DNA from: Alphaproteobacteria bacterium
GTDB lineage: Bacteria > Pseudomonadota > Alphaproteobacteria > Caedimonadales > UBA9215
DNA: 64,000 bases
Direction: 5' to 3'
NCBI GenBank assembly: GCA_024281375.1
Contig: JAJSAD010000003.1
Span: forward strand, 5,514 to 69,513
This document shows positions 2,099 through 44,569 of the stretch, one piece after another (the stretch's first letter is position 1; every line of letters begins with the position of its first letter). The notes beneath the pieces were generated by a model. That model did not search any database. It had not been told where the DNA came from and was given only the letters and a program-made list of their open reading frames with translations. Both the position numbers and the translations under genes were made by a program.

Positions 2099-4072
2099 TT
2101 ATTTGTTCGCTTTCTTTTTACTATCTGTTGTCTCATCATCATCGTCCGTAGAAGAAGACTCATCAACATCTTCATAATCAGCATCCACAACTTCAGCGTC
2201 ATCGGCACCCCCGTCAGCCTTGTCAGCAGAAGCCTCATCGGTGTTCGCTGCTTCGGCGGCTTGAGCTTCTTTGTAAATGGCTTCTCCAAGTTTCATAGAA
2301 GCTTGCATCAGAGCATCAGATTTTGTTTTCACATCTTCAACGTCAACTTCTTCTTGCGCACAGGCTTCTTTTAGAGCTTCCATAGCGTCTTCAATGGCCT
2401 TTTTATCAGCCTCTTCGACCTTATCACCATGTTCAGAAAGTTGCTTTTCCGTCGCATTCACCATGGCTTCTGCTTGGTTTTTGGCTTCAATAACTTCCCG
2501 ACGCTTTTTATCTTCTTCGGCATGGGTTTCAGCATCTTTAACCATCTGATCAATTTCAGAATCATCGAGACCTCCAGAGGCCTGAATCCGAATTTGTTGT
2601 TCTTTACCCGTGGCTTTATCCTTTGCAGATACATGAACGATACCATTGGCATCAATATCAAAAGTGACTTCGATTTGAGGCACTCCGCGAGGAGCCGGTG
2701 GCAACCCAACAAGATCAAACTGACCGAGAATCTTATTATCCGCTGCCATTTCACGTTCTCCTTGAAACACACGAATAGTCACCGCAGATTGATTATCATC
2801 AGCCGTTGAGAATGTTTGGCTTTTCTTGGCAGGGATTGTTGTATTACGATCAATCAAGCGCGTAAACACACCGCCAAGGGTCTCAATACCCAATGACAAG
2901 GGTGTGACATCAAGAAGAAGAACATCTTTAACGTCTCCCTGCAAAATACCCCCTTGAATAGCTGCTCCCATGGCAACAACTTCATCAGGATTTACGCCCC
3001 GATTAGGCTCTTTACCAAAAATTTCTTGAACGGTTTCAATAATCTTAGGCATCCGGGTCATCCCCCCAACCAAGATCACTTCATCAATTTCACTGGCTTT
3101 AAGACCCGCATCTTTCAACGCATCCTTACAAGGCTTAACGGTTTTCTTGATAAGGTTTGCAATGATGCTTTCAAGTTTTGACCTAGACAACACAATATTC
3201 AAGTGCTTTGGACCCGACGCATCTGCCGTAATAAAAGGCAAGTTCACATCAGTTTGTTGGGCACTAGAGAGCTCGATCTTTGCCTTTTCTGCCGCTTCTT
3301 TCAAACGCTGTAAGGCCATATTATCTTGACGGAGATCAACCCCTTGTTCTTTTTTGAACTCATCAGCTAGGTAATCAATGATTTGGAGGTCAAAGTCTTC
3401 TCCGCCCAAAAATGTATCACCATTAGTAGATTTCACTTCAAAAACACCGTCTCCAATTTCCAAAATAGAAACGTCAAAAGTGCCGCCACCAAGGTCATAA
3501 ACCGCAATGGTCCCTGTCTTATTTTTATCAAGGCCATAGGCAAGAGCAGCCGCAGTTGGTTCGTTAATAATACGTAGAATTTCAAGGCCGACAATTTTAC
3601 CTGCATCTTTTGTGGCTTGACGCTGAGCATCATTAAAGTGAGCCGGCACCGTCACAACAGCTTGGGTCACAGTTGTGCCAAGATAGGCTTCCGCTGTCTC
3701 TTTCATTTTTTGAAGAATAAAAGCACTAATTTGGCTCGGACTATACTCTTTGCCATGGGATTCAACCCAGGCATCATTGTTCTTTGATTTAATAATTTTA
3801 TAGGGGACAAGGCCAATATCTTTTTGCGTTGCGGGGTCATCAAAGGTGCGACCAATCAAACGCTTAATACCAAAAAGTGTATTTTCAGGATTTGTAACGG
3901 CTTGGCGTTTTGCAGCCTGACCCACAAGCTTTTCGCCATCCTTTGTAAACGCAACGAACGACGGCGTTGTGCGCATTCCCTCTGCATTTTCAATAACTTT
4001 AGATTCTTTACCATCCATGACGGAAACACATGAGTTTGTGGTTCCCAAATCGATACCAATGACTTTAGACAT
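2099..4072 (-). CDS. dnaK: Chaperone DnaK (Hsp70)
   Basis: Start '[16 protein letters not shown]', then '[10 protein letters not shown]' and '[11 protein letters not shown]', with an acidic C-terminal tail. I chose the ATG at 4072 rather than the upstream ATG at 4102. Confidence 0.97.
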
Positions 4073-4325
4073 AAGATTTATTCCTTCTTTTGCAAATTCC
4101 AAAAGCCCATCACTCAGGCGCTTTTCAAATTCCGTGTTAATTATATCTCCCCGAGCCTTTTTAACAGAAGCACCCGACGTGACAAACCAATAGAGAGATT
4201 GACTCTCTTTCTATATTATGCCAAAGAATCCATTTAAATGCAAGTTTTGAAGACTGTGTCATGAGCAGGTGATAAAAGGGGTGGTGGTTCTTAACACCCA
4301 ACAGTTTTTTTCTAAGAAGCTGTAA

Positions 4326-5160
4326 AGGGGCTTTTTCTTCTCCTCCTCCTTCTTCTCCTTCTTCTCCTCCTTCTTCTCCTTCTTCTCCTTCTCTCCCTTC
4401 CAAACCCCCTGCTCCCCGTGTATTTTTTTGACAAATAGACATTTTTTATCGATATCTTTGACTAATAGTCAAAAAATTGGCGAAATAAAGGCAGGGAAAG
4501 AGAGGGAAACAGGGAAAGAGAAGGAAACAGGGAAAGAGAAGGGAACAGGGAAAGAGAAGGGAACAGGGAAAGAGAGGGGGGCATTAAAAAGGAAAAGTAT
4601 CTTTTTTAAAAAATTTCCCCCCTTCTTTTAAACTGATGAATGGTAAGCTAGGACTACCTCATGAAAAAAAATTTAGATATTACGAACCTCTAATAATGCT
4701 TAAGAAAGAGAAGAATGCTACTTAGAATTAAGTTTTTTCCTTCCCTCACCCCACATTTTTCGACTAATAGACATATTTAAAAAATATTTTTACTATTTGT
4801 CAAAAAATTAAGCAACATGGGACGGAAGGAAAAAAAGAAAAAGGCAAGTTACCCGCCCCTTTTTATTTACTTCCTGCCTTTCCTTCCACCCCTCTCCTCC
4901 TCTTTCTTTTCCTGCCCTTAGTTTTGCCGGTTTTTTGATTAACAGTTACCAATAATGATATAAAATGCCTATTTGTCAAAAATTGGGCGGGGTATTTAAG
5001 GGAGAATGGGAGTGGGGAGGATTTGGACCCTATACCTATTCAGTTTCAAAAATGACGGGTAGTGAAAAACACCTCTTAATCCTTTTGTAAATTAATAAAT
5101 ATAAATGTCAAAAATAGAGGGGAAGGCAGGGGGGGAAAAAGAAAAATGGAAAAATTAAAG
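4326..5160. repeat. Array of four modules, each a polypyrimidine arm, an AT-rich core and a polypurine arm
   Basis: Approximate arm coordinates: CT arms 4331-4412, 4733-4755 and 4852-4917; GA arms 4486-4581, 4819-4847, 4985-5021 and 5116-5160. The cores carry TTGAC(A/T)AATAG or its complement. Confidence 0.8.
4492..4580 (+). repeat. 18-bp tandem repeat CAGGGAAAGAGAAGGGAA, about 4.5 copies
   Basis: Units read at 4492-4509, 4510-4527, 4528-4545 and 4546-4563, plus a partial unit from 4564. Units differ at 1-2 positions. Confidence 0.9.
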
Positions 5161-5162
5161 AA

Positions 5163-5269
5163 TATACCTATTCAGTTTCAAAATGTGGGTTTTAAAATCA
5201 GACTAGAGCTCCCGGAACGTCTACTTCATACGTGAGGACATTATGACTTTGGGATGTGTCGCCGTTTTG
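5163..5269 (+). repeat. Dispersed intergenic repeat family A, copy 1
   Basis: Shares 'GTGGGTTTTAAAA.CAGA..AGAGCTCCCGGA.CGT.TACTTCATACGTGAGGACA...GATGTGTCGCCGTTTTG' with the reverse complements of 16695-16796 and 7549-7641. Its first 21 nt also occur alone at 5031-5051. Confidence 0.8.
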
Positions 5270-5474
5270 CCAATAAAGAGACTTGGCCACAGGTTGAAAG
5301 AGGAGGGGTATAATCAACGCCTTGCTAAAACAAAATCACCTCTGGGTGGAACAAAAGACTTGACCCTATACACAGATGCCAAACTAAACTGAGGGATGGT
5401 AAGCGGGTGGTTCTAGTTTTGAATCATTTCTTGTGGTATTATTTTCTTAACTTCTCAATAAAAAGGAACTTAAT

Positions 5475-6386
5475 ATGGAATTTTCAACATTCGTTCTTGC
5501 CATCGTTGTTTTGGCAGCCGTTATTATCTCTATGGGTGTTAAATCGGTCCCTCAAAGTGAGGAATGGACCGTTGAGCGTTTTGGTAAATTTACAGGGCTT
5601 TTACGTCCTGGTCTCAACTTAATTATCCCTTTTGTCGATCGTATTGGCTCAAAAATTAGTGTAAGAGAGCGGGTTATTGACGTTCCTCCTCAGGATGTTA
5701 TTACAAAGGACAACGCCATGGTGCGTGTTGATGGAGTGGTCTTTTTTCAAATTCTTGATAGTGTAAAGGCAGCTTACGAGGTTGCGGGGCTTGAAAATGC
5801 TATTATTAACCTTACCATGACAAATGTAAGAACGGTTATGGGGGAGATGGTTTTGGACGGCCTTCTCTCAAACCGTGAAAAAATTAATTCTACGCTTTTG
5901 AATGTCATTGATGAAGCCACAAACCCTTGGGGTGTTAAGGTAACGCGTATTGAAATTAAAGATATTACACCGGCCAGCGATCTCGTGGAATCCATGGCCC
6001 GCCATATGAAGGCCGAGCGTGAGAAAAGAGCAACCATTCTTGAAGCCCAGGGGGTTCGGGAGGCCGCTATTCTTGAAGCTGAAGGAGAACGTCAAGCAAC
6101 GATTCTACGGGCCGAAGCCGACAAAGAAGCTGAATTTCGTAAGGCCGAGGGGCGGGAACGTGCTGCTGAAGCGGAGGCAAAAGCAACCCAAATGGTTTCA
6201 GAGGCCATTGCAAAAGGAGATATACAAGCCATTAACTACTTTGTTGCTCAAAAATATGTTGATTCCCTTAAAGACATGGCTTCTGCAGATAATAGTAAAG
6301 TGATCTTTATGCCCCTTGAATCCTCTAGTATTATTGGGGCTTTGGGTGGTGTTGCTGAGCTCACTAAAGAAGCCTTTAAGAAATAG
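5475..6386 (+). CDS. SPFH/band-7 (stomatin/QmcA-like) membrane protein
   Basis: N-terminal TM segment followed by an SPFH core ('TKDNAMVRVDGVVFFQI', 'WGVKVTRIEIKDI') and an Ala/Glu-rich coiled tail. It is followed by an NfeD gene, a classic pairing. Confidence 0.9.
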   Translation: MEFSTFVLAIVVLAAVIISMGVKSVPQSEEWTVERFGKFTGLLRPGLNLIIPFVDRIGSKISVRERVIDVPPQDVITKDNAMVRVDGVVFFQILDSVKAAYEVAGLENAIINLTMTNVRTVMGEMVLDGLLSNREKINSTLLNVIDEATNPWGVKVTRIEIKDITPASDLVESMARHMKAEREKRATILEAQGVREAAILEAEGERQATILRAEADKEAEFRKAEGRERAAEAEAKATQMVSEAIAKGDIQAINYFVAQKYVDSLKDMASADNSKVIFMPLESSSIIGALGGVAELTKEAFKK

Positions 6387-6391
6387 GATTA

Positions 6392-6844
6392 ATGTTTATG
6401 ACTCTAGAAACATTGAGCTTTGTTTACTGGCATTGGTGGCTTTTTGCCGTCCTGCTCTTTATTATTGAAATGATGGTTCCAGCGACCTTTTTTCTTTGGA
6501 TGGGGGTTTCTGCCGTTGCCGTTGGTATTCTGTCTTTTTTTGTGCCGGACCTCAGGAGTTCAACGGAGCTTATTATTTTTGCGGTGCTCTCTGTTATCAG
6601 TGTTATTGCTTGGCGGTTTTATCAAGCCAAGAATCCCTCCAAAACAGATCATCCGACGTTAAATCGTCGAGGAGAGCAGTATATTGGCCGTGTGGTCACC
6701 CTCACAAAACCTATTGGGGATGGTTTTGGCAAAGAAAAAGTTGGCTCAACCCTGTGGACCCTCCAAGGACCTGATGCTGATATTGGGACAAAAGTTAAAA
6801 TTACAGGTGTAGATAGCGCCGGTCTTTTGGTAGAGATTGCCTAA
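6392..6844 (+). CDS. NfeD-family membrane protein
   Basis: 150 aa with three to four TM segments and a C-terminal OB-like soluble domain ('GRVVTL...G.V...G..W...'). Confidence 0.8.
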   Translation: MFMTLETLSFVYWHWWLFAVLLFIIEMMVPATFFLWMGVSAVAVGILSFFVPDLRSSTELIIFAVLSVISVIAWRFYQAKNPSKTDHPTLNRRGEQYIGRVVTLTKPIGDGFGKEKVGSTLWTLQGPDADIGTKVKITGVDSAGLLVEIA

Positions 6845-7046: not shown

Positions 7047-7184
7047 CCAGATAACATATCTTGATTGGAGCACGAGTTCCTTAACAAGACATTAAGATTA
7101 CTACATGTTTCCTTGTTCTGAAGCAAGGAAAAAAAGAGAAAAAAGATTTTTCCTAAGGGCCCCCAGGAACGTTTCGGAAGAAAA

Positions 7185-9352: not shown

Positions 9353-10095
9353 CGCCTTATCTTTATTTTATCCTTCCCGTTTATAATGAATCCAAAAGCA
9401 TTTATGACTTGCTAGAGGAAATCAACACCCTTGCTAATGAGTCTCCCTCTATTATTAAGGCTTTTCCCATCAATGATGCCAGTCAAGATGACAGCGCCTC
9501 TTGGATTGGGCGTGCTCAACAAGAATTCAAAAACATCAAAATAGAAACCTTGACTCACGAAACAAATCAAGGTCTCCAGGGAGCTTTAAACACAGGACTT
9601 TCCCATATAGCTCCCCTTATTAAGGATGAGGATTATGTGGTGACAATGGACGGGGATAATACGCATCCGCCTTATCTCACCAAAACTATGATCCAAAAAC
9701 ACAAAGAAGGCGCCGACCTTGTCTTGTCTTCCCGCTATCTTGAGCAATCCGTTGTAACGGGTGTGTCTTTTTTTAGATTGTTTTTAAGTTTTGGAGCTCG
9801 GATTTTGTATCAACTTTTCTGGCGCTTTAAAGGGGTTAAAGACTACACCTGTTTATTTCGCTCCCACAAAGGGAGCCTTTTAAAGGCCTTTTTCAAAGCT
9901 CAGGAAATGCCCTATCTCACCCAACAGGGCTTTGCGTGTACAACGGAATTCTTAGCAAAATTGATGATCCACAAACCCATTACTGTTGAAGTGCCTCTTA
10001 TCTTGAATTACGGTAAAAAAGTGGGGGTTTCTAATGTGCGTATCTTTCAAACAATTTTGACATCTCTTAAAATTATGTTGAGAAAAATTTCATGA
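9349..10095 (+). CDS. Family-2 glycosyltransferase, polyprenol-phosphate sugar synthase-like (Dpm1/ArnC/GtrB type)
   Basis: 'ILPVYNES', 'NDASQDDS' and 'MDGDNTHPP' match the GT2 DxD / D-G-D-x-x-H pattern of this subgroup. Confidence 0.8.
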   Translation: MTPYLYFILPVYNESKSIYDLLEEINTLANESPSIIKAFPINDASQDDSASWIGRAQQEFKNIKIETLTHETNQGLQGALNTGLSHIAPLIKDEDYVVTMDGDNTHPPYLTKTMIQKHKEGADLVLSSRYLEQSVVTGVSFFRLFLSFGARILYQLFWRFKGVKDYTCLFRSHKGSLLKAFFKAQEMPYLTQQGFACTTEFLAKLMIHKPITVEVPLILNYGKKVGVSNVRIFQTILTSLKIMLRKIS

Positions 10096-11209
10096 AAATT
10101 ATGACTATTTTTGGGACAAGACCCGAAGCTATTAAAGTTGCGCCTTTGATCAAAGCTTTTGAAGAAGAGCCAACTATCGATCACCTTACCTGTGTTACGG
10201 CACAACATCGGGATATGCTGGATCAAGTCCTTGAAACCTTTGATATTGTGCCGGACTATGATCTTGATCTCATGAAAGAAAATCAAGACTTAGCGTCTCT
10301 TTCCGCTCAAATCTTAACAAAAATCACAGCTATCTTAAAAGAAACACAGCCAGATTTTATCCTCGTACAAGGAGACACAACAACGGTTCTGATGGCGGCG
10401 CTTGCTGCTTTTTATCAACGGATAAAAGTAGCCCACCTTGAAGCAGGCCTTCGCACAAACGATATTCTTTCCCCTTGGCCCGAAGAAGCCAATAGGCGTC
10501 TTGTTTCGACAATAACCCATGTGCATTTTGCCCCAACGCTTTATGCAAAGGAAAAACTTTGGCGGAAAATATTAACTCTCAGCGTATTCTTGTGACAGGC
10601 AATAGTGTCATTGATGCCCTTTTCAAGGCTCGTGATAAAATTGCCTCATCACCAGAAACAGTAGAACATTTTCATAAAACTTATCCCTTCTTAGAAAATA
10701 CTTCTCAAAAACTTTTGGTAACTCTTCATCGTCGGGAAAGCCATGGTGAAAAAATCTCCGGCATTTGTGAGGCTCTTAAAGAGCTTTCCCAAGAAAAAAC
10801 TAACCTTGATATTATTTTTTCCGTCCACCCCAACCCGAATGTCAAAAAAGTTGTGAAAACTATTTTAGGGGGGATTTCCAATGTACATCTTATTGCGCCA
10901 CCCCCCTATCTTGATTTTGTTCACCTCATGACTCAAGCGACTCTTATTTTAACGGATTCTGGCGGTATTCAAGAAGAAGCACCCAGTCTTAATATTCCCG
11001 TATTGGTTGCCCGTGACAAAACAGAACGCCCTGAAGGTATCCAAGCTGGTAGCAGTATTTTGGTGGGGCGGGATGGACAGGATATTAAAAAAACAATTCT
11101 CGCTTTTTTAGAGAATAAATCCTTATATAATAAGCACGCCAATATCCCTAATCCTTTTGGAGACGGCACAACAGCACAGCGCGTTCTCGACTATTTTAAG
11201 AAGGTTTAA
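10092..11209 (+). pseudogene. wecB: UDP-N-acetylglucosamine 2-epimerase, split by a 1-nt deletion near 10558-10560
   Basis: ORF 10092..10595 carries 'IFGTRPEAIKVAPL', 'QHRDMLDQV' and 'HLEAGLRT'. ORF 10559..11209 continues with 'RILVTGNSVIDAL...TDSGGIQEEAPSL'. Joining needs one extra T in 'aaactttggcg' to read 'AKEKLLAENINSQRILVTGN'. Confidence 0.88.
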
Positions 11210-28959: not shown

Positions 28960-30524
28960 ATGAGCAACAATATACCAATCCTTGATATGAACGAGAGCTT
29001 TAAAAAAGCCTTGCGCTTGATGGATGGCTCGTCCAAGAATCTCTTTATTACGGGTAAGGCGGGGACGGGGAAATCAACACTCCTGCAATACTTCAGAGAT
29101 CACACTCAAAAACAAATAGCTATCCTAGCCCCAACGGGGGTTGCGGCGGTAAATGTGAAGGGCCAAACCATTCACTCCTTTTTTAAATTTAAGCCCGATG
29201 TCACCTTGGAGGGCATCAAGAAAAAGCGCGCCTCTAAAAGCGGTAAGAAGAATATTTATCAACGTCTTGATGCTATCATTATTGATGAAATTTCTATGGT
29301 AAGAGCCGATCTTATGGATTGTATGGACCGCTTTTTACGCTTAAATGGCCGAGAGGGCACAAAACCCTTTGGCGGGGTGCAGGTTATTTTCTTTGGCGAT
29401 CTTTATCAGTTAGCCCCGGTGATTTCACGCCAAGAGCGTGAGATTTTTGAAACCCATTACGAAAGCCCTTATTTTTTTAGCGCCAATGTCATTGATTAAA
29501 TTGATCTTGAAATCCTTGAACTAGAGCAAATCTATCGTCAAAAAGACAAAGCCTTTATTGAAATTCTCAATGCCATTCGTAATAACACCATTACGCCAGA
29601 TCAATTAACCCTGTTGAATACGCGTCATACCCCCGATATTAAACCCACAAAAGAGGCTTTATCTGTTTTTTAACCCCGACCAATAGAGCTGCCAACGTTA
29701 TTAATGAGGAGCAGTTAGAGTGTCTCGAGGGAAAATATCACTTTTTTGAAGGAAGGACCTCGGGCAGTTTTGGCAAAGGTCATTTACCAGCTCCTGAAGA
29801 TCTTCAAATTAAAATCGGTGCCCAGGTTATGATGTTGAATAATGACCCCAAACAGCGTTGGATTAATGGGACCATGGCACGGGTGTTGCGTATTTTCCAA
29901 GATGATGAGGATTATGAAACCATCATTAGCGTCGAACTTGAAGATGGCAAGAAGGCTAATGTCGCGCCCCATACCTGGGAGCTTTATAAGTACAAGCTCG
30001 ACAGCGATAAAATTGTTTCTGAAATCGCGGGAAGTTTTACGCAATATCCTTTAAACCTCGCTTGGGGCATTACCATTCACAAAAGCCAAGGCAAAACCTT
30101 TGATCAAGCTATTATCGATCTTGGCAGTAATGTGTTTTCTTCGGGTCAAACCTATGTGGCTTTGAGTCGTTGCACAACCCTTGAAGGTCTCAGTTTGCGC
30201 AAAAAAATTCTTTCTAAACATATCTGGACTGATCAGAGGGTTGTGGACTTTCTCACCACCCATCAGTATAAATTGGCTGATAAATTGATGAGTGTGAACG
30301 ATAAACTTTATGTATTAGGGCAAGCCATGGAAGACGAGCGTCCCCTTAAAATCACGTATCTCAGGGCAAATGGCACAAAAAGTGAGCGTATTATCGAACC
30401 CCTTGAGGTGGGAGAAATGACCTATCAAGACACACCTTTTCAAGGAGTCAAAGCCTATTGTCAATTGGCTGAGAAAAACATGACCTTTCAAGTTCGTCAA
30501 ATCCTAGAGATTCAGGGGGCTTGA
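28960..30524 (+). pseudogene. PIF1/RecD-like helicase with a C-terminal WYL-like domain, disrupted by an in-frame TAA and a -1 frameshift
   Basis: Walker A 'GKAGTGKST', 'IIIDEISMV', 'GDLYQLAPV', 'QIYRQKD', 'GAQVMMLNND', 'ITIHKSQGKTF' and 'YVALSRC'. Lesions are TAA at 29497-29499 and a T6 run at 29666-29671 that needs one more T to read 'VFLTPTNRAANVIN'. The tail 'ITYLRANGTKSERIIEPLEV...VKAYCQLAEKNMTFQVRQILEI' resembles a WYL domain. Confidence 0.85.
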
Positions 30525-36215: not shown

Positions 36216-36521
36216 ATGATTATATTAAACAAGATACTTATTGTATTATTTTTTTCTATCAGTTTAGCAAAAACATCTCTTGTGAATGAAGGGGAAACCT
36301 ACGAAATTAGAGATGCTTTCGTTATGAATTATATGTGTTACATTCAAGTTCAGAGAAAAAATCTTCAAGAGAAAGGTCTTTTACTAAGAGTGCCTTGCAA
36401 AACATATCTAAAAAGATATTTTTCTAAGTCTCTGCGACAGCAAGCTTTATGCAATTCTCTTTATAGTGCTTTGCTTAAACGCACCATCCTTAGGTTGCTG
36501 GGCAATAGACAAGAAGATTAA
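36216..36521 (+). CDS. Possible small secreted protein (weak call)
   Basis: An ORF with signal-like 'MIILNKILIVLFFSISLAKT'. It is AT-rich, has no homology I recognise, and is convergent with tadC. Confidence 0.3.
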   Translation: MIILNKILIVLFFSISLAKTSLVNEGETYEIRDAFVMNYMCYIQVQRKNLQEKGLLLRVPCKTYLKRYFSKSLRQQALCNSLYSALLKRTILRLLGNRQED

Positions 36522-37453
36522 TTTCCAAAAAGATCACTTTCCATCACAGCTGCAATTGTTGGCCCCAGAATAATAATTAAAATAGCCGGCAAACTAAGCA
36601 ACACAACGGGAACGGTTAATTTTGAGGGAAGCTTTGCAGCCTTTCGCTCGATCATCATTAGTTTTTGCTTCGAGGTTTCTTGGGATAAAAACATTAATGT
36701 TTTGCCAATGGCAACGCCCTGTTCCTCCGATTGGATGAGACTTGTAGTCAATATATGGATAATGTCAGAGTCAACGCGTCTTGCAAGGTTTGCATAAGCA
36801 AGTTTGCGTTCCGGTAGAATCCCAAGTTCAGCGGATGTAATAGTCAATTCCCGTGCAAGTTCTGGGTTCGTATGGATGACTTCTTGAGAAATACGATCGA
36901 GAGCCTTATCAAAGGAGAGACCCCCTCGGACACACACGACCAATAAATCTATGGCCATTGGAATATCTTTAATAATCATATCTCGTCGATGTGCTATTTT
37001 AAAATCCGTTAAATAATCAAAACTCCGATAGCCAATGAAAAGCATGAGCGCTAAAATAACATATTTTACAAAAGGTTCTAAAACGGTAAAATTTTCTGAC
37101 AAATTATTCAGAAAAAAGAAGAGGAAAAAAAATAAGAGAACCGAAAATATTTTATAAGCAGGGACGAAAATGGCGGCAGAATAGGGGTCCCAACCACAAC
37201 GTTCAAATCGCACCCGAAAATCAGCAACTGTTTGTTTGTTTTTCTTTTTAAACTTTTCAACGATGCTTGACGTCAACGATGTCTTTTTTTGTTTTGTGTC
37301 ATCTGCTGCTAGAGCCCCCGTACCATGACTTGTTTTTTGAGAAAAACGAAGACGGTGGCGTAAAAGTGAACGTTTCTGTATCTTTGATAAAATCCAATAA
37401 GCGCCTATCATCACAAAGAAAGCAACGGCTGGTAGAATAAATGAATTTGTCAT
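36518..37453 (-). CDS. tadC: Tad pilus inner-membrane platform protein TadC
   Basis: 311 aa with the T2SSF-like pattern ('DIPMAIDLLVVCVRGGLSFDKAL') and terminal TM segments. It is last in the cpa/tad operon. Confidence 0.85.
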   Translation of the reverse strand: MTNSFILPAVAFFVMIGAYWILSKIQKRSLLRHRLRFSQKTSHGTGALAADDTKQKKTSLTSSIVEKFKKKNKQTVADFRVRFERCGWDPYSAAIFVPAYKIFSVLLFFFLFFFLNNLSENFTVLEPFVKYVILALMLFIGYRSFDYLTDFKIAHRRDMIIKDIPMAIDLLVVCVRGGLSFDKALDRISQEVIHTNPELARELTITSAELGILPERKLAYANLARRVDSDIIHILTTSLIQSEEQGVAIGKTLMFLSQETSKQKLMMIERKAAKLPSKLTVPVVLLSLPAILIIILGPTIAAVMESDLFGN

Positions 37454-37462
37454 ATATACCTC

Positions 37463-38446
37463 TTATTCAACTTTTATATTCGTGAGCCATTTAATAACTA
37501 AAGCTTCCAAAACGAGCAAACCAATAACCACTTTCAACAAAAAAGCCCCCATTGTGTCATAGAGGAAAAAATCCATATATTCTGGTTTGACCACCATAAT
37601 AATAAACCAAATCACAAGGGGCACAGAGCCAAGAATAATGCCCGTCGATTTGGCCTCCGCGGAAAGGGAAAGAGTTTTCAAACGAATTTCATGGCGACGA
37701 TGGAGAAGGAAAAGAATATTTTCAAGGGTCTCTGATAAACTTCCGCCGGTTTGTCGCTGAATAATAAGGGCGTTAATAAGAAAATAAAAATCGCTCGTAT
37801 GAACGCGTTCTGAGGCCAAGTGGAGGGCATCCTCATAGGACACACCGATATTCATTTGTTGAACAACTTGTTTGAATTCCCCTCCAACAGAGGGGTGCAT
37901 TTCTTTAGCAACAACCACAAAGGTTTTTTCAATAGAATATCCAGACTTTAAAGATCTGAGAATCAAATCAATGGCCGTTGGTAAATATTTAATCGTCAGT
38001 TTTTGACGGCGATCCTTTAAAAAGGAGAGGAGAAACCAGGTGAGAAAAAAAACGATTAAAATACTGATGAAAAAACTCACAAATAAGCCTGCAAAATCAA
38101 AAGAAATGCTTATATAGGTTAATACGATCACCAAAGAAATAAGAGCAATAACACCATTGATCAAAGAAAAAGACAGGCCGCTTCGATAAAGCTGTAACTG
38201 AAACCAATTTTCACTTTTAAAATGACTTAAATAGCCATGTAATTTTTTTTCAATAAGGCCACTGCGTTTTTTTTGAAAAAGTTTTACTTTGTCTTTAAAG
38301 AGAGCTCCTTTGGGTGATAAAGTTGACAAACGCTCTGCAAGCAGGCTTTTTTTTCGATAGAGTGTCATAAAATAATCAAGGGTAAGGTAGGCTACTAAGA
38401 AAGCGACAAAACAAGAAAAAGTAATTAAAAAAGCGCTCTCGACCAT
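37463..38446 (-). CDS. tadB: Tad pilus inner-membrane platform protein TadB
   Basis: 327 aa with the T2SSF-like 'LPTAIDLILRSLKSGYSIEKTF'. Confidence 0.85.
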   Translation of the reverse strand: MVESAFLITFSCFVAFLVAYLTLDYFMTLYRKKSLLAERLSTLSPKGALFKDKVKLFQKKRSGLIEKKLHGYLSHFKSENWFQLQLYRSGLSFSLINGVIALISLVIVLTYISISFDFAGLFVSFFISILIVFFLTWFLLSFLKDRRQKLTIKYLPTAIDLILRSLKSGYSIEKTFVVVAKEMHPSVGGEFKQVVQQMNIGVSYEDALHLASERVHTSDFYFLINALIIQRQTGGSLSETLENILFLLHRRHEIRLKTLSLSAEAKSTGIILGSVPLVIWFIIMVVKPEYMDFFLYDTMGAFLLKVVIGLLVLEALVIKWLTNIKVE

Positions 38447-38449
38447 CTC

Positions 38450-39862
38450 TTAAGAAGACCTCAATGATTTCATAAGGTCGTCCTCAAACTTAAAGGTCCT
38501 GGCAATTTCTACAAAGGAATCAGGCTTGTTCAGATTTTTAAATTCTCCTTGAATAATGCCCTCTTCGTCATCATGAGTATAGTGGAAACGGAAGATATCT
38601 TGGTGTTGAATCACACCTTTTTTCACACCGTTGATTTCCGTTATTTGTGTCAGGCGACGACGACCATCTCGCATACGATCCACATGGACAATTAAGTTAA
38701 TAGAATCTCCAATATAACTTTTTAAAACTTGAGAAGGAAAGTCATGCCCTGTCATAAGTAACATATTTTCAAGGCGTGAGAGGGCCTCAACAGAACTGTT
38801 AGCATGAACCGTTGACATAGAACCATCGTGCCCCGTGTTCATGGCTTGAAGCATATCAAAAGCCTCAGCCCCCCGGCACTCTCCAACGATGATACGGTCA
38901 GGGCGCATCCGTAAAGCATTTTTTAAAAGGTCGGCAATTTTGATGGTTCCTTCTCCCTCAACATTGGGGGGCCTTGATTCCAAACGCACCACATGGGGCT
39001 GGGCCAGTTGAAGTTCTGCAGAATCTTCAAGGGTAACAATGCGTTCATTGGGACTAATTAATTGAGACAGAGCATTTAAAAGGGTTGTTTTACCAGCACC
39101 TGTTCCCCCTGAAACAATAATATTCAAACGACATTGTGCGGCAACCTTTAAAAAATCAGCCATATGTTGCGAGAGACTGCCTGTTTTGACCATTTGATCG
39201 AGTGTAATTGTTTTATTAGAAAATTTACGAATAGAGATAGAAATGCCATCGAGGGCAACGGGTGGAATAATAATATTCACTCGGCTTCCATCTGCTAAAC
39301 GTGCGTCAACCATTGGACTAGATTCATCAATACGTCGACCAATCATGTTGGCAATGCGTTGGGAAATTTGCATAACATGACGAGGACTTCGAAACACGAC
39401 ATCCGTTAAATAGAGTTTGCCTTGGCGTTCGACAAAAATCGTATTGTAGGCATTAACCATAATATCATTGATTAAAGGGTCAGCTAGTAAAATCTCAAGG
39501 GGGCCTAACCCGATCATGTCATTAATAATATCTTCAGCGATTTGTTGCTGTTCGTGATAGGTGATTCGCGCTTGATTCTCTTCAGTATACTCAGTGATAA
39601 AGCGCTCAATTTCTTGATGGAGCTCATCTTTTTTCATCTTCGAAACTGTTGCTAAATCAATTTCATTGATTAATCGATCAAAAATTTGGTTTCGAAAGGA
39701 AGAAACAGCCTCAGAGAAATGAACGCTTTTTGTTTCAAGTTTTGCAAGGTCAAAGGGATTCAAATCCGTTGAATTTTTTTCAACGATCCTAACATCTTCA
39801 CTATCTTTTTCTTGAAAAGAATCCCCGGGGGGGGCAGAAGGTTTTTGACCAAAAGGAGGCAT
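38450..39862 (-). CDS. cpaF: Tad pilus secretion ATPase CpaF/TadA
   Basis: Walker A 'SGGTGAGKTTLLNAL', 'IVTLEDSAEL' and 'RPDRIIVGECRGAEAFDMLQAMNTGHDGS'. Confidence 0.95.
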   Translation of the reverse strand: MPPFGQKPSAPPGDSFQEKDSEDVRIVEKNSTDLNPFDLAKLETKSVHFSEAVSSFRNQIFDRLINEIDLATVSKMKKDELHQEIERFITEYTEENQARITYHEQQQIAEDIINDMIGLGPLEILLADPLINDIMVNAYNTIFVERQGKLYLTDVVFRSPRHVMQISQRIANMIGRRIDESSPMVDARLADGSRVNIIIPPVALDGISISIRKFSNKTITLDQMVKTGSLSQHMADFLKVAAQCRLNIIVSGGTGAGKTTLLNALSQLISPNERIVTLEDSAELQLAQPHVVRLESRPPNVEGEGTIKIADLLKNALRMRPDRIIVGECRGAEAFDMLQAMNTGHDGSMSTVHANSSVEALSRLENMLLMTGHDFPSQVLKSYIGDSINLIVHVDRMRDGRRRLTQITEINGVKKGVIQHQDIFRFHYTHDDEEGIIQGEFKNLNKPDSFVEIARTFKFEDDLMKSLRSS

Positions 39863-39886
39863 TTTTCTTTTTTTCTCCCTAACTAT

Positions 39887-41095
39887 TTAGGCTGTAAATA
39901 GGTTTTTTAAAAATGATTTTTCTTTATGTTCTAAGGGTTTTCCAACAAGGTGAGCGGCAAATTCTTTTATTTCAAGAGAGAGCTGACTACTTTCCTTTAT
40001 AAGAGGTGAGGCATTATTTAAACATTCAAGGGGTATTTTTCTATCAAAGCGGGTCATGAAAGTAATAGGATGGTCAATGGCCACCTCAAAATCACTCTGA
40101 GAAATTTCACCTTCATTATACAAACCGACTTTGTTTGCAAGAATAAGTATATTTTGTTCAATACTGGCTCTTTCTTGAAAATAACGAATAAGCCTCGATG
40201 TTTCCCGAACAGATGAAAATGTTAAATCACATACCAAAACGATGGTATCAGAGAATTTAAACACAAGTTCTTTAAAGGAAACAGGTGCGCCATGGGAACA
40301 ATCCACAAGAGTGTAATTATAATTCTGTGCCAAAAGACTTAATATAATTTTCATACCAGCAGCACATTGATTATAAGGTGTTAAAAGTTCTGTTTCGGAA
40401 CTGAGAATATCCAAACGATTTCCGTAGGGCACAATCATCTTATCAAGAAGAGTTTGGTCAATCTGATTGGATCGTTTCAATAAATCGATCAGCCCGGCAT
40501 TAATGGGGATATCTAAAGCGTGGGCAAGGGGGGCCGATGTCAAATTAAAATCCACAAGACTCATATGCTTATTATGATCTTCTGCCATAGAAATAGCACA
40601 ATTGGCTGTCAGCATTGATGTACCAACACCTCCACAGACCCCTAAAAACGAAATAATATGACCGCTATAAGAAAAGCCAGAGGTCTCAGAAACATCCGTG
40701 CCTTTTTTCAAAACATCCTTTAAGCGATTCAAGACTAAACTGGTATTAAGGGGCTTTACAAGATAATCACTAACCCCCAAAGCCAATAATTGCCTAAAAA
40801 TACTGACATCATTATCCTTGCCAAGGGCAATGACGTGAATGCTCGGTTCACATACACCTGATATTTTTTCCATTTCTGTAATGGGGAGAGCCGCTTCTGA
40901 GAGGTCAACAATGAGAAGGCTCGGCGAATCATTTTTTTTTAAATAATTAAAGGCAAATTTTGAATTTCCCCGTAAAATTTTTGCCGCAATACCAAGTTCC
41001 TTGAAAGGAATTTCTTTTAGAACGGCTTCAGTCTCACTATCTGTCACAAGAGCAAGCAATGTCATTTCAGAAGTATAAGATGTTTTCTTTTCCAT
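39887..41095 (-). CDS. cpaE: CpaE/TadZ: receiver-like N-domain plus atypical ParA/MinD ATPase
   Basis: The N-terminal receiver-like fold is followed by 'ISFLGVCGGVGTSMLTAN', a deviant Walker A. Its position is between cpaD and cpaF. Confidence 0.85.
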   Translation of the reverse strand: MEKKTSYTSEMTLLALVTDSETEAVLKEIPFKELGIAAKILRGNSKFAFNYLKKNDSPSLLIVDLSEAALPITEMEKISGVCEPSIHVIALGKDNDVSIFRQLLALGVSDYLVKPLNTSLVLNRLKDVLKKGTDVSETSGFSYSGHIISFLGVCGGVGTSMLTANCAISMAEDHNKHMSLVDFNLTSAPLAHALDIPINAGLIDLLKRSNQIDQTLLDKMIVPYGNRLDILSSETELLTPYNQCAAGMKIILSLLAQNYNYTLVDCSHGAPVSFKELVFKFSDTIVLVCDLTFSSVRETSRLIRYFQERASIEQNILILANKVGLYNEGEISQSDFEVAIDHPITFMTRFDRKIPLECLNNASPLIKESSQLSLEIKEFAAHLVGKPLEHKEKSFLKNLFTA

Positions 41096-41110
41096 ATTTA
41101 CCCAATATTC

Positions 41111-41821
41111 TTATTCGGATGAAGCACCAAGGTTCGCAAGATCTTGGATGCTCCCCGCATCAAAGCCTGACTCTGATTCATTGTCTGTTGTGGCACGAGC
41201 ACGATATTTTTCAATCACAGCCGCATTGTAAGGACCGTCAGGGTTTGCAAGGGGTTGGGCTTCATAAAGGTCCCGTGGCTCTGCCAGCATTTGTGCAAAA
41301 TTTCGTTCTGTCACACAACCAAATTGAGATTCTCCCTGCGGCAAGGTCTTCTCTCCCATGATATCCCATCCCGGACACTGTGGCAAACTCACCTCATATT
41401 GATCAATAACAACAGTGATCATGTTTTTATTTTTCCGTGATATTGTGGCTACCTTGTGAGGCGCTAAATAGGTTACCCTCACACGATGGGGCTCAATGCC
41501 ATAAAGCCTAAAATGTCTCGAACAGTGACGAATTCGTTCCGTTTGTAAAGAGTCATGGGCCCGCGTTTTGGGTACATTCATCAGCAAACGAGCATAAACA
41601 GGTGTGTCTATGGTTGCCCTTGATATTAAGTTTCGAAGAACTTTATGTTGTGCTGAATTCATATGGGTTTGAGACGATGTGAAGTAGAAATTTTCAAAAT
41701 GAGAGTAGCGCTCGACCTTTGTTTCCCAAGGCTTTCTTTCAAGTTCTTTTCCATCATGCTGACAGGCAGAGACAAATAAGAACGATAAAACACAAAGAGC
41801 AATTCTTTTAAAGGTATCCAT
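41111..41821 (-). CDS. cpaD: Pilus assembly lipoprotein CpaD
   Basis: Lipobox 'FVSAC' and the CpaD pattern 'CPGWD....FGCVTERNFAQMLAEPRDL...YR'. Confidence 0.8.
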   Translation of the reverse strand: MDTFKRIALCVLSFLFVSACQHDGKELERKPWETKVERYSHFENFYFTSSQTHMNSAQHKVLRNLISRATIDTPVYARLLMNVPKTRAHDSLQTERIRHCSRHFRLYGIEPHRVRVTYLAPHKVATISRKNKNMITVVIDQYEVSLPQCPGWDIMGEKTLPQGESQFGCVTERNFAQMLAEPRDLYEAQPLANPDGPYNAAVIEKYRARATTDNESESGFDAGSIQDLANLGASSE

Positions 41822-41833
41822 TAGTCAACTATC

Positions 41834-43201
41834 CTATTCTGTATGAAAACCAGCAACGGTCTGAAGACGCGCTGTCGTTTTAGTGTTTAAACGTTTTGAG
41901 AACAACATTTCCATTGTCGAGCTATGCTGTATACCCGTTGTCGGTATCTCTAGATTTTTGGGCATCGTTGGATTGACAATATAAGGTGTGACAATAATAA
42001 CGAGCTCTGTTTCATTGCGAATAAATTCCGTTGATCTAAATAACGCCCCCAAAATGGGGATACTGGCAAGACCTGGAAATTCTTTAATAGTGTTTGCAAT
42101 ATTATGAGACAAAAGACCTGCGATTGCAAAACTCTGACCACTCGACAGCTCGACAGATGTTTCAGCCCTGCGTGTTTTGATGGCAGGGATTGTCAGACTT
42201 TGCCCGCCAATATTTACAATAGAAGCTTTTGATTCATCAAGCTCACTCACTTCTGGGCTCACTCTGAAATTAATGCGATCAGGTCCTATAACTCGTGGTG
42301 TAAACTCGAGCCCAATACCAAAGGGCTTGAATTCAATGGTAATATTAAGATTGTTTTGGGGAACGGTAAAAGGAAATTCTCCTCCCACCAAAAAGCTAGC
42401 CTTCTCGCCAGATACAGCCACCAAATTAGGCTCCGCTAAAATGGTTGCTAAGTTCTCTTTATCTAACATATCCAGCAACACTGCATAATCACTGACCCTA
42501 TCCGTAAAACGAAAACCTCCGCTCCCTGAGGGTGCATTTGTTAAGGAAGATGGTCGACTAAAAAGAGCCCCTGCAAGAGGCTCCCGGCCCGTTAAAGCCC
42601 CATAGGAAAAGTGCTCATGAGCATTGGTTACAGCAAGACCCCAATTTGGATCTATTTTCGTTAGAACACTTCGACTAACCTCAGCGATCTTAACTTTTAA
42701 ATACACTTGTGTGGACGTTGATAAGGTGAGATTGTTAACAACAACTTCTTCTTTTCCAAGGAATTGAGCCGTTACATTTTCAGCATCTTTTAAAATTTTT
42801 GAGGTAGATACTGTTCCCAATAAAACAATCCCATTGGGAGAAGAAACTGTTTGGATGTCTTCATGGGGAAAAGCCCGCCTTAACGTTGCATTTAATTGTG
42901 CAAGACTCTGAGTGACTTCCAAAGTAATTTCTGTATTTTTTCCATCTGCCGTTGTGACAAAAACAGATGTTGTTCCAGCCGACTTACCATACACATAAAT
43001 ACCATATGGCTGATTGGGTTGCACATCAGCAATAGAAGGATTGGCCACGAAAACGTCAGAAATACCTCCTGGCAGGTTAATAAGTTGTGCCTTGTTGATT
43101 TCGACATGGACAAGTTGCGTGGCATTAAGAGAAAAACCTAACAAGCTTCCCACAACAAAAAAGAGGAACGCTTTAAAATAAAAATTTTGAATCTTTGGCA
43201 C
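41834..43201 (-). CDS. cpaC: Tad pilus secretin CpaC/RcpA
   Basis: Signal peptide, BON-like N-domain, and secretin C-domain 'FAIAGLL....FPGLASIPILGALFRS......ETELVIIVTPYIV'. Confidence 0.93.
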   Translation of the reverse strand: MPKIQNFYFKAFLFFVVGSLLGFSLNATQLVHVEINKAQLINLPGGISDVFVANPSIADVQPNQPYGIYVYGKSAGTTSVFVTTADGKNTEITLEVTQSLAQLNATLRRAFPHEDIQTVSSPNGIVLLGTVSTSKILKDAENVTAQFLGKEEVVVNNLTLSTSTQVYLKVKIAEVSRSVLTKIDPNWGLAVTNAHEHFSYGALTGREPLAGALFSRPSSLTNAPSGSGGFRFTDRVSDYAVLLDMLDKENLATILAEPNLVAVSGEKASFLVGGEFPFTVPQNNLNITIEFKPFGIGLEFTPRVIGPDRINFRVSPEVSELDESKASIVNIGGQSLTIPAIKTRRAETSVELSSGQSFAIAGLLSHNIANTIKEFPGLASIPILGALFRSTEFIRNETELVIIVTPYIVNPTMPKNLEIPTTGIQHSSTMEMLFSKRLNTKTTARLQTVAGFHTE

Positions 43202-43229
43202 TATCTTTTTCCCTGTTTATTTCATTTGA

Positions 43230-43979
43230 TTAATCAAAATTGCCACGATTAACTTTGATTTTTCTAGATTTTACAAGTTTTTTGACACCACTTTTCGCCT
43301 CTAATTTAGGCGTATAGGCACTATTATAGCTAATCACAATGCCGCCATGGGCAATAGAAAGTGCTAAGGCTTCGGCTTGTTCTGTTGTGACCTCTAAGGT
43401 AATGTTCTTTGCAATGGTGTTTGGTGTGTCACCGTCAGGAATAAAAAAATTATCATCCACAGCAATGACTTTAATGGCATTTAAAATCGTATCTACGGAT
43501 TGGGTTTGTCCTTTTCGTTGGGGAAGAATAATATCGATATAATCACTGGGTGTTACATGAACACCCGCATTGGCAACTTTTTTCAACGGGACAGACACAG
43601 CTTTCATATTCGGGCTGATAAAAGCTGATAAGATGCTTTTTGTATCTCCTCCTACCAAGTCCGCTTTTTTGAGGGGCTCTCCCTCTAAAATTTCGTAACG
43701 CACGACCATCCCGTGAATGCCTTTCAGTGCTTTAACTTCCTGCTCAGTATAGTAGTCATCTTGTATAGAGCCGTCGGGCCATCCAACCCATTTAAACCTA
43801 TCAATATTGATACGTTCTCCTGGCTTTAAATCAAACTTTGCGACAAGAATTTTGGTGAGGTCTTTATCTTTATCCTCAGAAATGACAACAGGCCTGCTTT
43901 GCAAAAAGTACACAACCCCTGCGACACCAAGTGCCAAAATAAAGGCAATAAACATATTTGAAAAACGACTTGTTTTCAT
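43230..43979 (-). CDS. cpaB: Flp pilus assembly protein CpaB/RcpC
   Basis: An N-terminal TM segment, a SAF-like domain ('LVAKFDLKPGERI') and an RcpC-like C-terminus. Confidence 0.85.
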   Translation of the reverse strand: MKTSRFSNMFIAFILALGVAGVVYFLQSRPVVISEDKDKDLTKILVAKFDLKPGERINIDRFKWVGWPDGSIQDDYYTEQEVKALKGIHGMVVRYEILEGEPLKKADLVGGDTKSILSAFISPNMKAVSVPLKKVANAGVHVTPSDYIDIILPQRKGQTQSVDTILNAIKVIAVDDNFFIPDGDTPNTIAKNITLEVTTEQAEALALSIAHGGIVISYNSAYTPKLEAKSGVKKLVKSRKIKVNRGNFD

Positions 43980-44035
43980 AAAAAATCCGGGTTAATAATC
44001 TAATAGTTTAAGCTATATAAAATTTTAACATATTT

Positions 44036-44569
44036 TTAATAAAAGTTTAACATCAAAAGAACACCGGCAAAAACAGCAACTCCATAAGGAATCGTAATCT
44101 TTGATAAACTTTTTAAGTGTCTTGTTGGTGTTTTTTTCTTTTCAGTCAAATAGCCCTCTAGAAATTTAAGTGCCGACAGCTTTTTTATTAAAAAAAAGCG
44201 TATTCTTTCAATAAAGGGATCGGCTTTAAGGTATATCAAACCCAAGATACCTCCAGCTAATGCCATAAAAATAAAAAAGAGGAGAGCGTTGTAATCCACT
44301 ACCCATAAAGAAACAACAGCAATAAATTTTGCATCTCCAGCCCCCAACATTTTTATAGCATAAAGAACAAAACAAACAAAAAAGGTCACACCAAAAACCA
44401 TCAAAGGTGTTTTCATAACGCTCCAGTCAAAACCGGATTCCAAAAGTACTTTTGTGAAAAAGAGGGCAAACAAAAAAACGATAACTTCATTGGGAATTTT
44501 ATAAATAAGAAAATCGACGAGGGCCACAAAGGCGCAAACAACAAGGAAAACAATGAAAAAAAGATCCAT
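44036..44569 (-). CDS. cpaA: Prepilin peptidase CpaA/TadV (A24 family)
   Basis: 177 aa and polytopic. It has 'VDFLIYKIPN' (first Asp) and 'LGAGDAKF' (GxGD). Confidence 0.85.
   Translation of the reverse strand: MDLFFIVFLVVCAFVALVDFLIYKIPNEVIVFLFALFFTKVLLESGFDWSVMKTPLMVFGVTFFVCFVLYAIKMLGAGDAKFIAVVSLWVVDYNALLFFIFMALAGGILGLIYLKADPFIERIRFFLIKKLSALKFLEGYLTEKKKTPTRHLKSLSKITIPYGVAVFAGVLLMLNFY

Follow-up and report, generated by a model that had tools for sequence, protein, structure and literature searches.

A repeated array of purine and pyrimidine arms around A+T-rich, promoter-like cores upstream of dnaK in an alphaproteobacterium

Introduction

Bidirectional sigma-70 promoters of bacteria have a pseudo-symmetric A+T-rich core with promoter elements on both strands, and their divergent starts lie 7-25 bp apart, mostly 18 bp, with secondary maxima at 23 and at 29 bp (Warman, Forrest, Wade and Grainger, bioRxiv 10.1101/2020.01.31.928960; see also PMC12825309). 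They are enriched in recently acquired or non-genic DNA (bioRxiv 10.1101/2020.01.31.928960). Here we analyze a 64-kb stretch of an alphaproteobacterial genome (contig JAJSAD010000003.1, positions 5,514 to 69,513; hereafter the window, numbered from its first letter), in which the gap between dnaK and a gene for an SPFH-domain protein holds an array of modules, each with an A+T-rich core between a pyrimidine-rich arm and a purine-rich arm. The array resembles these promoters in its pseudo-symmetric A+T-rich cores with elements on both strands, and in divergent starts that are predicted here to lie tens of bp apart (23 and 29 bp in the paper). It differs from them in that the symmetric parts are 15-nt boxes containing the -35 hexamers instead of overlapping -10 elements, and in that the unit is repeated 3.5 times with a near-pure purine tract on each side, the starts being predicted only.

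Other described systems share single traits with the array. The REP/BIME elements of enterobacteria, the Rickettsia palindromic elements and the Correia elements form families of tens to hundreds of dispersed copies with stable hairpins, and the Correia elements of Neisseria carry promoter boxes. Like the array, they are imperfect palindromes in direct and inverted orientation, packed in one intergenic region. Unlike them, the array is confined to one locus, has core hairpins of -3 to -7 kcal/mol and is not bounded by terminal repeats. In Mycoplasma gallisepticum, the vlhA genes are preceded by phase-variable (GAA)n tracts, which also combine slippage-prone purine repeats of 3-nt period with a promoter-like core; the array, in contrast, has no dependent surface-protein gene, carries repeats on both sides of the core, and has mostly non-tandem arms. 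Among RNAs, CsrB, RsmX, RsmY and RsmZ titrate CsrA or RsmA by means of repeated GGA motifs, and CrcZ titrates Hfq by means of A-rich A-R-N triplets. Finally, a link between intrastrand triplex motifs and bacterial genome instability has been described (PMC4666352). Such motifs and H-DNA mirror repeats share with the array long homopurine/homopyrimidine intergenic tracts and a rearranged region, and differ from it in that the mirror symmetry of the array is not above chance.

Results

A modular array fills the gap between dnaK and the SPFH gene

The gap is flanked by minus-strand genes for LicD (9-842), DnaJ (999-2021) and DnaK (2099-4072) on one side and by plus-strand genes for an SPFH/paraslipin protein (5475-6386) and NfeD (6392-6844) on the other. 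At 1.4 kb, it is the largest gene-free stretch in the window. The original prediction, which had been made from the letters of this window, held that the gap contains no credible open reading frame (ORF), and our searches agree: the sole sizeable ORF, of 93 aa on the minus strand (4161-4442), matched only itself among 5.8 billion proteins and has no homologue. The same prediction described four modules, A to D, with a pyrimidine arm, an A+T core and a purine arm. When we recomputed purity at the same coordinates, this layout was recovered. Module A has a left arm of 95% pyrimidine, a core of 71% A+T and a right arm of 94% purine; the corresponding values are 87%, 83% and 93% for module B, 91%, 75% and 81% for module C, and 58%, 90% and 91% for module D. 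The left arm of D, which had been called weak, is at 58% pyrimidine no real arm. The arms, at about 50% G+C, thus surround cores of 71-90% A+T.

The purity of these tracts is extreme. Positions 4331-4401 form an unbroken C/T run of 71 nt, and 4493-4581 consists of five 17-nt A/G runs with a single C between runs; further purine/pyrimidine runs in the gap measure 25 nt and 21 nt. In mononucleotide shuffles of the window, the longest such run was 21 nt. All 36 of the sampled 60-nt windows of the 64 kb with at least 85% purity fell within 4300-5200. Across 1.72 Mb of other loci, 50-nt windows of at least 90% purity occurred in four viral contigs only, and none was found in the 100 bacterial loci of this comparison DNA.

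The arms of module A contain tandem repeats. An 18-bp unit, CAGGGAAAGAGAAGGAAA, runs for 4.7 copies with 96% matches (4492-4575), and the stretch at 4335-4396 is made up of units of 9, 12 and 21 bp; these near-perfect copies imply ongoing length change. The guanine-rich ends of the arms also stand out. G4Hunter gave its two most extreme scores in the 64 kb at 4390-4424 (-2.00) and 5109-5145 (+1.96), and the sole canonical G-quadruplex motif lies at 4985-5010. All three sit where one class of arm, which we call type-2 and define below, begins. Of the 27 segments scoring at least 1.5, five are concentrated in 1.3% of the window.

The modules are diverged copies of one quasi-palindromic unit

In a self-comparison of the window the modular architecture stood, and the modules aligned to one another. 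Module A on the plus strand (4425-4527) matched module C on the minus strand (4982-4879) with 73% identity over 104 nt (E = 5e-15); A matched B with 72% over 95 nt (E = 2.0e-9); B matched its own reverse complement with 66% over 106 nt (E = 3.9e-8); and the right arm of C matched that of D with 66% over 80 nt (E = 1.1e-4). A profile of the three modules A, B and C also matched each of them in reversed orientation (E = 1.6e-7, 1.5e-4 and 6e-3). From these alignments we take the gap to be three and a half diverged, lineage-specific copies of one quasi-palindromic unit, with A and B in direct orientation, C inverted, and D the reversed right half of a C-like copy. This paralogy, the inversion of C and the half-module D, as read from the alignments, are points beyond the original prediction.

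Each core contains two inverted boxes of consensus TTTTTTGACAAATAG, with about 45 bp between their outer edges. The pattern TTTTYGAYWAWYAG-N(10-40)-CTRWTWRTCRAAAA had three matches in the window, all of them in the gap, and none in shuffles, and an exact 14-mer, TTTTTGACAAATAG, is kept in three cores that are about 70% identical overall. The two sides of a module differ. A-left, B-left, C-right and D-right have the type-2 side, which reads ATG(T/C)CTATTTGTCAAAAA followed by G-clusters. A-right, B-right and C-left have the type-1 side, which reads CTATTTGTCAAAAAATTGGCGAAATAAAGGCAGGGAAAG.

In module A, the type-2 left arm (4331-4412, minus strand) is purine-rich on the minus strand, has a G-clustered inner end, ACGGGGAGCAGGGGGTTTGGAAGGG, and contains 20 consecutive A-R-N triplets, a number reached in none of 500 shuffles. 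Core A (4421-4478) carries its boxes at 4424-4438 (TTTTTTGACAAATAG) and 4462-4476 (CTAATAGTCAAAAAA) around an A+T-rich center. The type-1 right arm (4486-4581, plus strand) contains the 18-bp tandem and with it five ACAGGGA units at 18-nt spacing. Module B is smaller, with a short type-2 left arm (4733-4755, minus strand), a core at 4756-4809 (TTTTTCGACTAATAG ... CTATTTGTCAAAAAA) and a type-1 right arm (4819-4847, plus strand). In module C, the type-1 left arm (4852-4917, minus strand) is homologous to A-right in inverted orientation, and the core (4931-4985) is followed by a type-2 right arm (4985-5021, plus strand) that includes the G-quadruplex motif. Core D (5084-5115) is truncated: its right box, TGTCAAAAAT, is intact, its left box survives only as the degraded TTTTGTAAAT, and the center lacks about 19 bp. 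It is followed by the type-2 right arm of D (5116-5160, plus strand).

Conservation within the array is uneven. C-right and D-right have the same start, TGTCAAAAAT, and are followed by the same 21-nt plus-strand 3' box, TATACCTATTCAGTTTCAAAA, at 5031-5051 and 5163-5183 (21 of 21 positions identical), while the purine bodies between are about half identical. Exact or near-exact inverted repeats link positions 4421-4438 with 4793-4810 (17 of 18 positions), 354 bp apart, and 4425-4438 with 4969-4982, 530 bp apart. In addition, a 20-nt plus-strand sequence at 4629-4648, TAAACTGATGAATGGTAAGC, is a 90% copy of 5385-5404 in the leader of the SPFH gene, and we read this repeat as the mark of a segmental duplication within the gap. 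The array may have grown by an old inverted duplication, then by duplications of whole modules, and then by recent slippage in the arms of A. The old inverted duplication is placed at the beginning because the two sides of each module differ consistently.

The cores can be read as bidirectional promoters

Our best reading, held tentatively and at somewhat less than even confidence, is that each core is a symmetric bidirectional promoter of the sigma-70 type that would give rise to short, divergent, purine-rich RNAs. The original prediction had offered three ideas, namely a hairpin or H-DNA structure, nested mobile elements and divergent transcription units. The last is the best supported of the three, by the inverted TTGACA boxes, the -10-like hexamers and the terminator-like hairpins that are predicted in the array.

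Core C has the two best promoter matches of the cores, one per strand. On the plus strand it reads TTAACA-N16-TAAAAT (4939-4966) and on the minus strand TTGACA-N16-CATTAT (4979-4952), each with 10 of 12 positions of the sigma-70 consensus; the plus-strand site can alternatively be read as an extended -10 element, TGATATAAA. The match in core B is 9 of 12, and core A reads TTGACA-N19-TATCTT. In both A and B the -35 boxes are exact or nearly so, and the -10 hexamers, at 18-19-bp spacing, are weaker. Elements of both kinds are present on both strands of one pseudo-symmetric A+T-rich segment, as consensus matches only. Of the 36 TTGACA hexamers in the 64 kb, four are clustered in a span of 700 bp. 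The tRNA promoters of the window are canonical (TTGAAA-N17-TATAGT and TTGCTT-N17-TAGTAA). Directly upstream of the -35 box of the tRNA-Glu promoter lies a 22-nt purine run (7125-7146), pyrimidine on the sense strand, which resembles the pyrimidine arm upstream of each core box.

In the arrangement that we propose, the two inverted TTGACA(AATAG) boxes, about 45 bp apart, would be the -35 elements of two opposed promoters, with -10-like hexamers back to back in the center of the core, and transcription would run outward. From the box positions, the divergent starts are predicted about 26-28 bp apart, which would fall in the range reported for bidirectional promoters (bioRxiv 10.1101/2020.01.31.928960). 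An RNA in either direction would start ...UUUGUCAAAAAAUU and continue into a purine-rich tract that opens with G-clusters; both RNAs would be purine-rich because the unit has inverted symmetry. The predicted transcripts are 53-75% purine overall, with arms that are 81-95% pure.

Some of the units would end at a hairpin followed by a U-tract. One such terminator-like hairpin lies 3' of A-right (4568-4629, plus strand), where GGGGGG...CCCCCC is followed by UUCUUUU (-23.6 kcal/mol, z = -1.96). Another is common to B-right and C-left (4819-4883) and is terminator-like in either direction, with T-runs on each side; its energy is -17.8 kcal/mol on the plus strand (z = -1.41) and -24.9 kcal/mol on the minus strand (z = -2.15), and a minus-strand terminator is predicted within it at 4862-4838. 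The output would be as many as seven short non-coding RNAs of about 80-180 nt, GA-rich and for the most part unstructured, of which the leftmost would point at dnaK and the rightmost at the SPFH gene. Candidate roles would be a protein sponge like CsrB or CrcZ, or the formation of R-loops or G-quadruplexes beside a promoter. We infer the firing of the cores and any role of their transcripts from the sequence alone.

Folding, replication, coding and known RNA families

We compared the array with several other kinds of element. The original prediction had regarded each module as a large imperfect inverted repeat with complementary inner arm ends. Inverted symmetry does extend over the core and about 25 nt of each arm, but the distal arms pair like shuffled sequences; the complementary pair CCCTGC/GCAGGG in module A is real, but the example given for module C is only partial. 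Compared with shuffles of the same composition, the duplex energies of the arms had z-scores of +1.2 (A), -2.2 (B), -0.6 (C) and -1.1 (D), and no arm paired beyond the level of shuffled tracts, either with its own partner or with an arm of another module. Module A folded as DNA gave z = 0.16. The arm duplex energies and this fold score, both at shuffle level, speak against a long hairpin or cruciform. For H-DNA, the required homopurine/homopyrimidine tracts are present, but none of the six tracts showed mirror repeats above chance (best arms 6-10 nt, shuffle means 7.3-11.5 nt). With arm complementarity and mirror symmetry at or below the level set by composition and core hairpins as weak as those quoted above, the idea of a hairpin or H-DNA structure was not borne out. 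The half-sites of the cores diverge independently toward one consensus, without compensating changes, which fits recognition of the DNA sequence rather than of a hairpin.

A replication origin was rejected as well: there is no DnaA box (up to one mismatch) in the gap and no sign change of GC skew at 4-5 kb. No rep gene was found among the flanking genes scanned, and the 18-bp tandem is iteron-like in form only. Coding modules were also considered. In their favor, the tandem periods of 9, 12, 18 and 21 are all multiples of 3, and the type-2 half-sites open with ATG, giving peptide starts MSICQK and MPICQK. The peptides share only these six residues, however, lack ribosome-binding sites, have different ends and are not conserved between modules, and a leaderless start is incompatible with the spacing of the boxes.

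No known RNA family was recognized. Neither strand of the array matched Rfam 15 at gathering thresholds, and a search with E up to 10 returned only spurious microRNA and snoRNA matches far below gathering scores. As to the sponge RNAs, the predicted RNAs would likewise be short, multi-copy and built from repeats, with GGA or A-R-N motifs and a terminator, and the ACAGGGA units of A-right and the A-R-N triplets of A-left recall binding motifs of CsrA and Hfq. They are unlike sponge RNAs in that GGA is not enriched, the motifs do not lie in hairpin loops, and no GacA-type upstream box is present; in their purine bodies the predicted RNAs are largely unpaired. No match to CsrA, FliW or Hfq was found within the 64-kb window.

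The array is absent from relatives

The genome is that of an alphaproteobacterium close to Holosporales; homologues of the SPFH protein at 86-87% identity are named Alphaproteobacteria or Holosporales bacterium. Five genomes whose DnaK is 86-92% identical were examined upstream of dnaK, and two whose SPFH protein is 86-92% identical upstream of the SPFH gene, and none contains the modules. Six related loci show what lies there instead. A Tara scaffold (L099), whose DnaK falls in the same 90% cluster as the 92% match, has the same DnaK-DnaJ-LicD order, and there a gap of 394 bp separates dnaK from a gene for a PIF1-type helicase. Three other loci have different DNA upstream of dnaK (L082, DnaK 86%; L085, 89%; L083, 92%). 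Upstream of the SPFH gene, L087 (SPFH 92%) has a gap of 188 bp, and in L001 (SPFH 86%) an ORF ends 4 bp before the SPFH start. Across the relatives, only the promoter and leader of dnaK itself are conserved in this region. The PIF1-type helicase gene, which lies directly upstream of dnaK in L099 (6042-8000), is 25 kb away and split in the window (28966-30515), and this displacement makes the gap a synteny breakpoint. A tblastn search of the gap found no relics of the genes that flank dnaK and the SPFH gene in relatives.

Four independent metagenomic contigs of close relatives (L083, L084, L086 and L100) end 91-462 nt upstream of dnaK, which may reflect DNA that is hard to assemble. L083 ends 26 nt before TTTTGACAAAT and a short purine run; the matches there are 11-16 nt long and not significant (E = 0.06-0.2).

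Further copies were sought in the 64 kb of the genome itself, 100 bacterial loci, JGI metagenomes, viral contigs and plasmids. The A/B/C profile found only its own modules in the window and the other 123 loci, the half-site was absent from the first 100 loci, and blastn against plasmids gave no match. The cores and arms thus have no further copy in the rest of the window or in relatives, and the view that no known class of element has this architecture stands, as none appeared in Rfam, plasmids, viral contigs or JGI metagenomes. Nine metagenome and two viral matches to the palindromic-core pattern were all ordinary hairpins without arms, and 23 viral matches to the half-site pattern are about the number expected by chance. 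Three of these that we read (L104, L107 and L115, two of them giant-virus metagenome-assembled genomes) lie inside one conserved gene. Its opposite strand reads MSICQKLYEGGYITYMRTDS in our reading and is topoisomerase-like, with a lysine/glutamate-rich linker about 150 nt away. That the spurious ORFs of the gap begin similarly, with MSICQK, we take to be a coincidence.

Neighboring features

The left limit of the array is marked by the dnaK promoter, CTTGCAT-N16-GGCATAATA, and its conserved leader (4073-4250, minus strand), both outside the array. The promoter is of heat-shock type, and about 130 nt of the leader are conserved in seven related contigs. A consensus fold of the leader has two hairpins, the second of which, AAAAGCGCC...GGGCUUUU, stands just before the ribosome-binding site and has four compensatory pairs. 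The leader has no match in Rfam and may, on this comparative evidence, be an unannotated regulatory leader.

Two genes of the window are split, one for a UDP-GlcNAc 2-epimerase (10092-10595 and 10559-11209) and the other for the PIF1-type helicase (28966-29670 and 29655-30515); they are either frameshift pseudogenes or sequencing errors. The minus strand at 36518-44569 carries a Tad/Flp pilus cluster with two TadB/C-like proteins, an ATPase, CpaD, a secretin, RcpC/CpaB and a prepilin peptidase. Among the DnaK homologues collected, the top-scoring match (P0001, 939 aa; L081, 300-3119) is on a G+C-rich contig and has the Pfam HSP70 domain twice. This protein appears to be a DnaK with a partial duplication or a fusion and has no connection to the window.

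Discussion

The array is real, statistically extreme and apparently unique. Several observations weigh against reading its cores as bidirectional promoters. A convincing terminator is present in only three of the seven proposed units, and the terminator candidates of A-left and B-left score no better than shuffles. The -10 candidates are for the most part weak, with spacers of 18-19 bp, and chance -10 hexamers are to be expected because the cores are A+T-rich; a scan found five promoter-like sites compared with 2.5 +/- 1.4 in shuffles. In all seven arms, GGA counts equal the expectation from composition-matched shuffles. The older arms are 5-19% impure, which by our own estimate is about what neutral decay from pure tracts would produce at the divergence of the cores. 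Finally, the array was found in none of the relatives readable upstream of dnaK or upstream of the SPFH gene, and with this absence conservation lends no support for function. We consider a selected function of the array unlikely. It is doubtful, more so, that the modules are an undescribed kind of gene, in which a bidirectional promoter would produce GA-rich RNAs for protein titration or for R-loops and G-quadruplexes, kept beside dnaK in a Holosporales-like lineage.

The strongest rival is that the array is functionless debris: a microsatellite-like purine/pyrimidine tract, with an A+T-rich stretch beside it, that inverted and direct duplication copied where the genome was rearranged and that has been decaying since; transcription, if any, would be incidental. 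We regard this as a serious alternative, somewhat less probable than the promoter reading. It would explain why the array is not conserved in any relative read and has no copy elsewhere, and it agrees with the synteny breakpoint at the gap and with the split epimerase (10092-11209) and PIF1 (28966-30515) genes in the same genome. The purest arms are the youngest tandem arrays, with 96% matches, the older arms are less pure, D is without its left half, and the arm pairing, the mirror symmetry and the GGA content are no more than composition alone would give. Simple decay does not predict the uneven conservation, however, in which exact 14-mer boxes and a 3' box identical at 21 of 21 positions lie beside bodies of about 50% identity, nor the terminator-like hairpins where transcripts would end; and since so pure a tract is absent from all 100 bacterial loci, the starting material would itself have been unusual. 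A role of the DNA as such, with non-B structure (G-quadruplex, R-loop, triplex or cruciform) acting on recombination or on the dnaK and SPFH promoters, seems to us rather unlikely. The extreme G4Hunter scores and the only G-quadruplex motif of the 64 kb do flank the cores, cores of 71-90% A+T lie between arms of about 50% G+C, synteny breaks at the locus, and bacterial genome instability has been tied to intrastrand triplex motifs (PMC4666352). The sequence analysis points the other way, with mirror repeats at or below shuffle level in six of six tracts, arm complementarity at composition level, a DNA fold of module A at z = 0.16 and weak core hairpins.

We give little credence to an assembly artefact, whether from collapsed low-complexity reads, chimeric reads or two contigs misjoined at the tract. 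The closest named relatives are metagenome bins, the gap coincides with the break in synteny, and the contigs of four relatives end no more than 462 nt upstream of dnaK. The modules differ by 25-34%, however, so that neither collapse nor an amplification chimera explains them, and paralogous pieces are found on both sides of any join (A and C; 4629-4648 and 5385-5404). Only the tandem copy numbers could be at real risk from assembly error. Slightly less probable still is a miniature mobile element, such as a miniature inverted-repeat transposable element, a Rickettsia palindromic element or a Correia element, or an invertible switch for phase variation that acts through the inverted boxes. Exact inverted 14-18-mers 354 and 530 bp apart and the quasi-palindromic form of every module would suit it. 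All copies lie in one gap, though, with none in the other 62 kb or in 100 bacterial loci; the conserved inverted boxes are internal, with none at the outer ends; there are no target-site duplications; and no transposase, integrase, invertase or recombinase was found among the 60 ORFs scanned. The idea of nested mobile elements in the original prediction is thus disfavored by the lack of a further copy, of outer terminal repeats and of a transposase or recombinase in the window.

Taken as candidate bidirectional promoters, the modules are best filed not as a new class but as an unusual variant of two known things, bidirectional promoters and slippage-prone purine/pyrimidine tracts, amplified by inverted and direct duplication. 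The case comes from one locus in one assembly, which limits how far it can be generalized. Bacterial DNA very rarely contains long, pure tracts of purines or pyrimidines. If the cores are silent, the locus still shows how a structured repeat of 1.4 kb can arise by inverted duplication and slippage at the site of a rearrangement, in a genome that has split genes as well. If they fire as predicted, it would be a natural case of bidirectional promoters duplicated together with what they transcribe, and a possible birthplace of new small RNAs.

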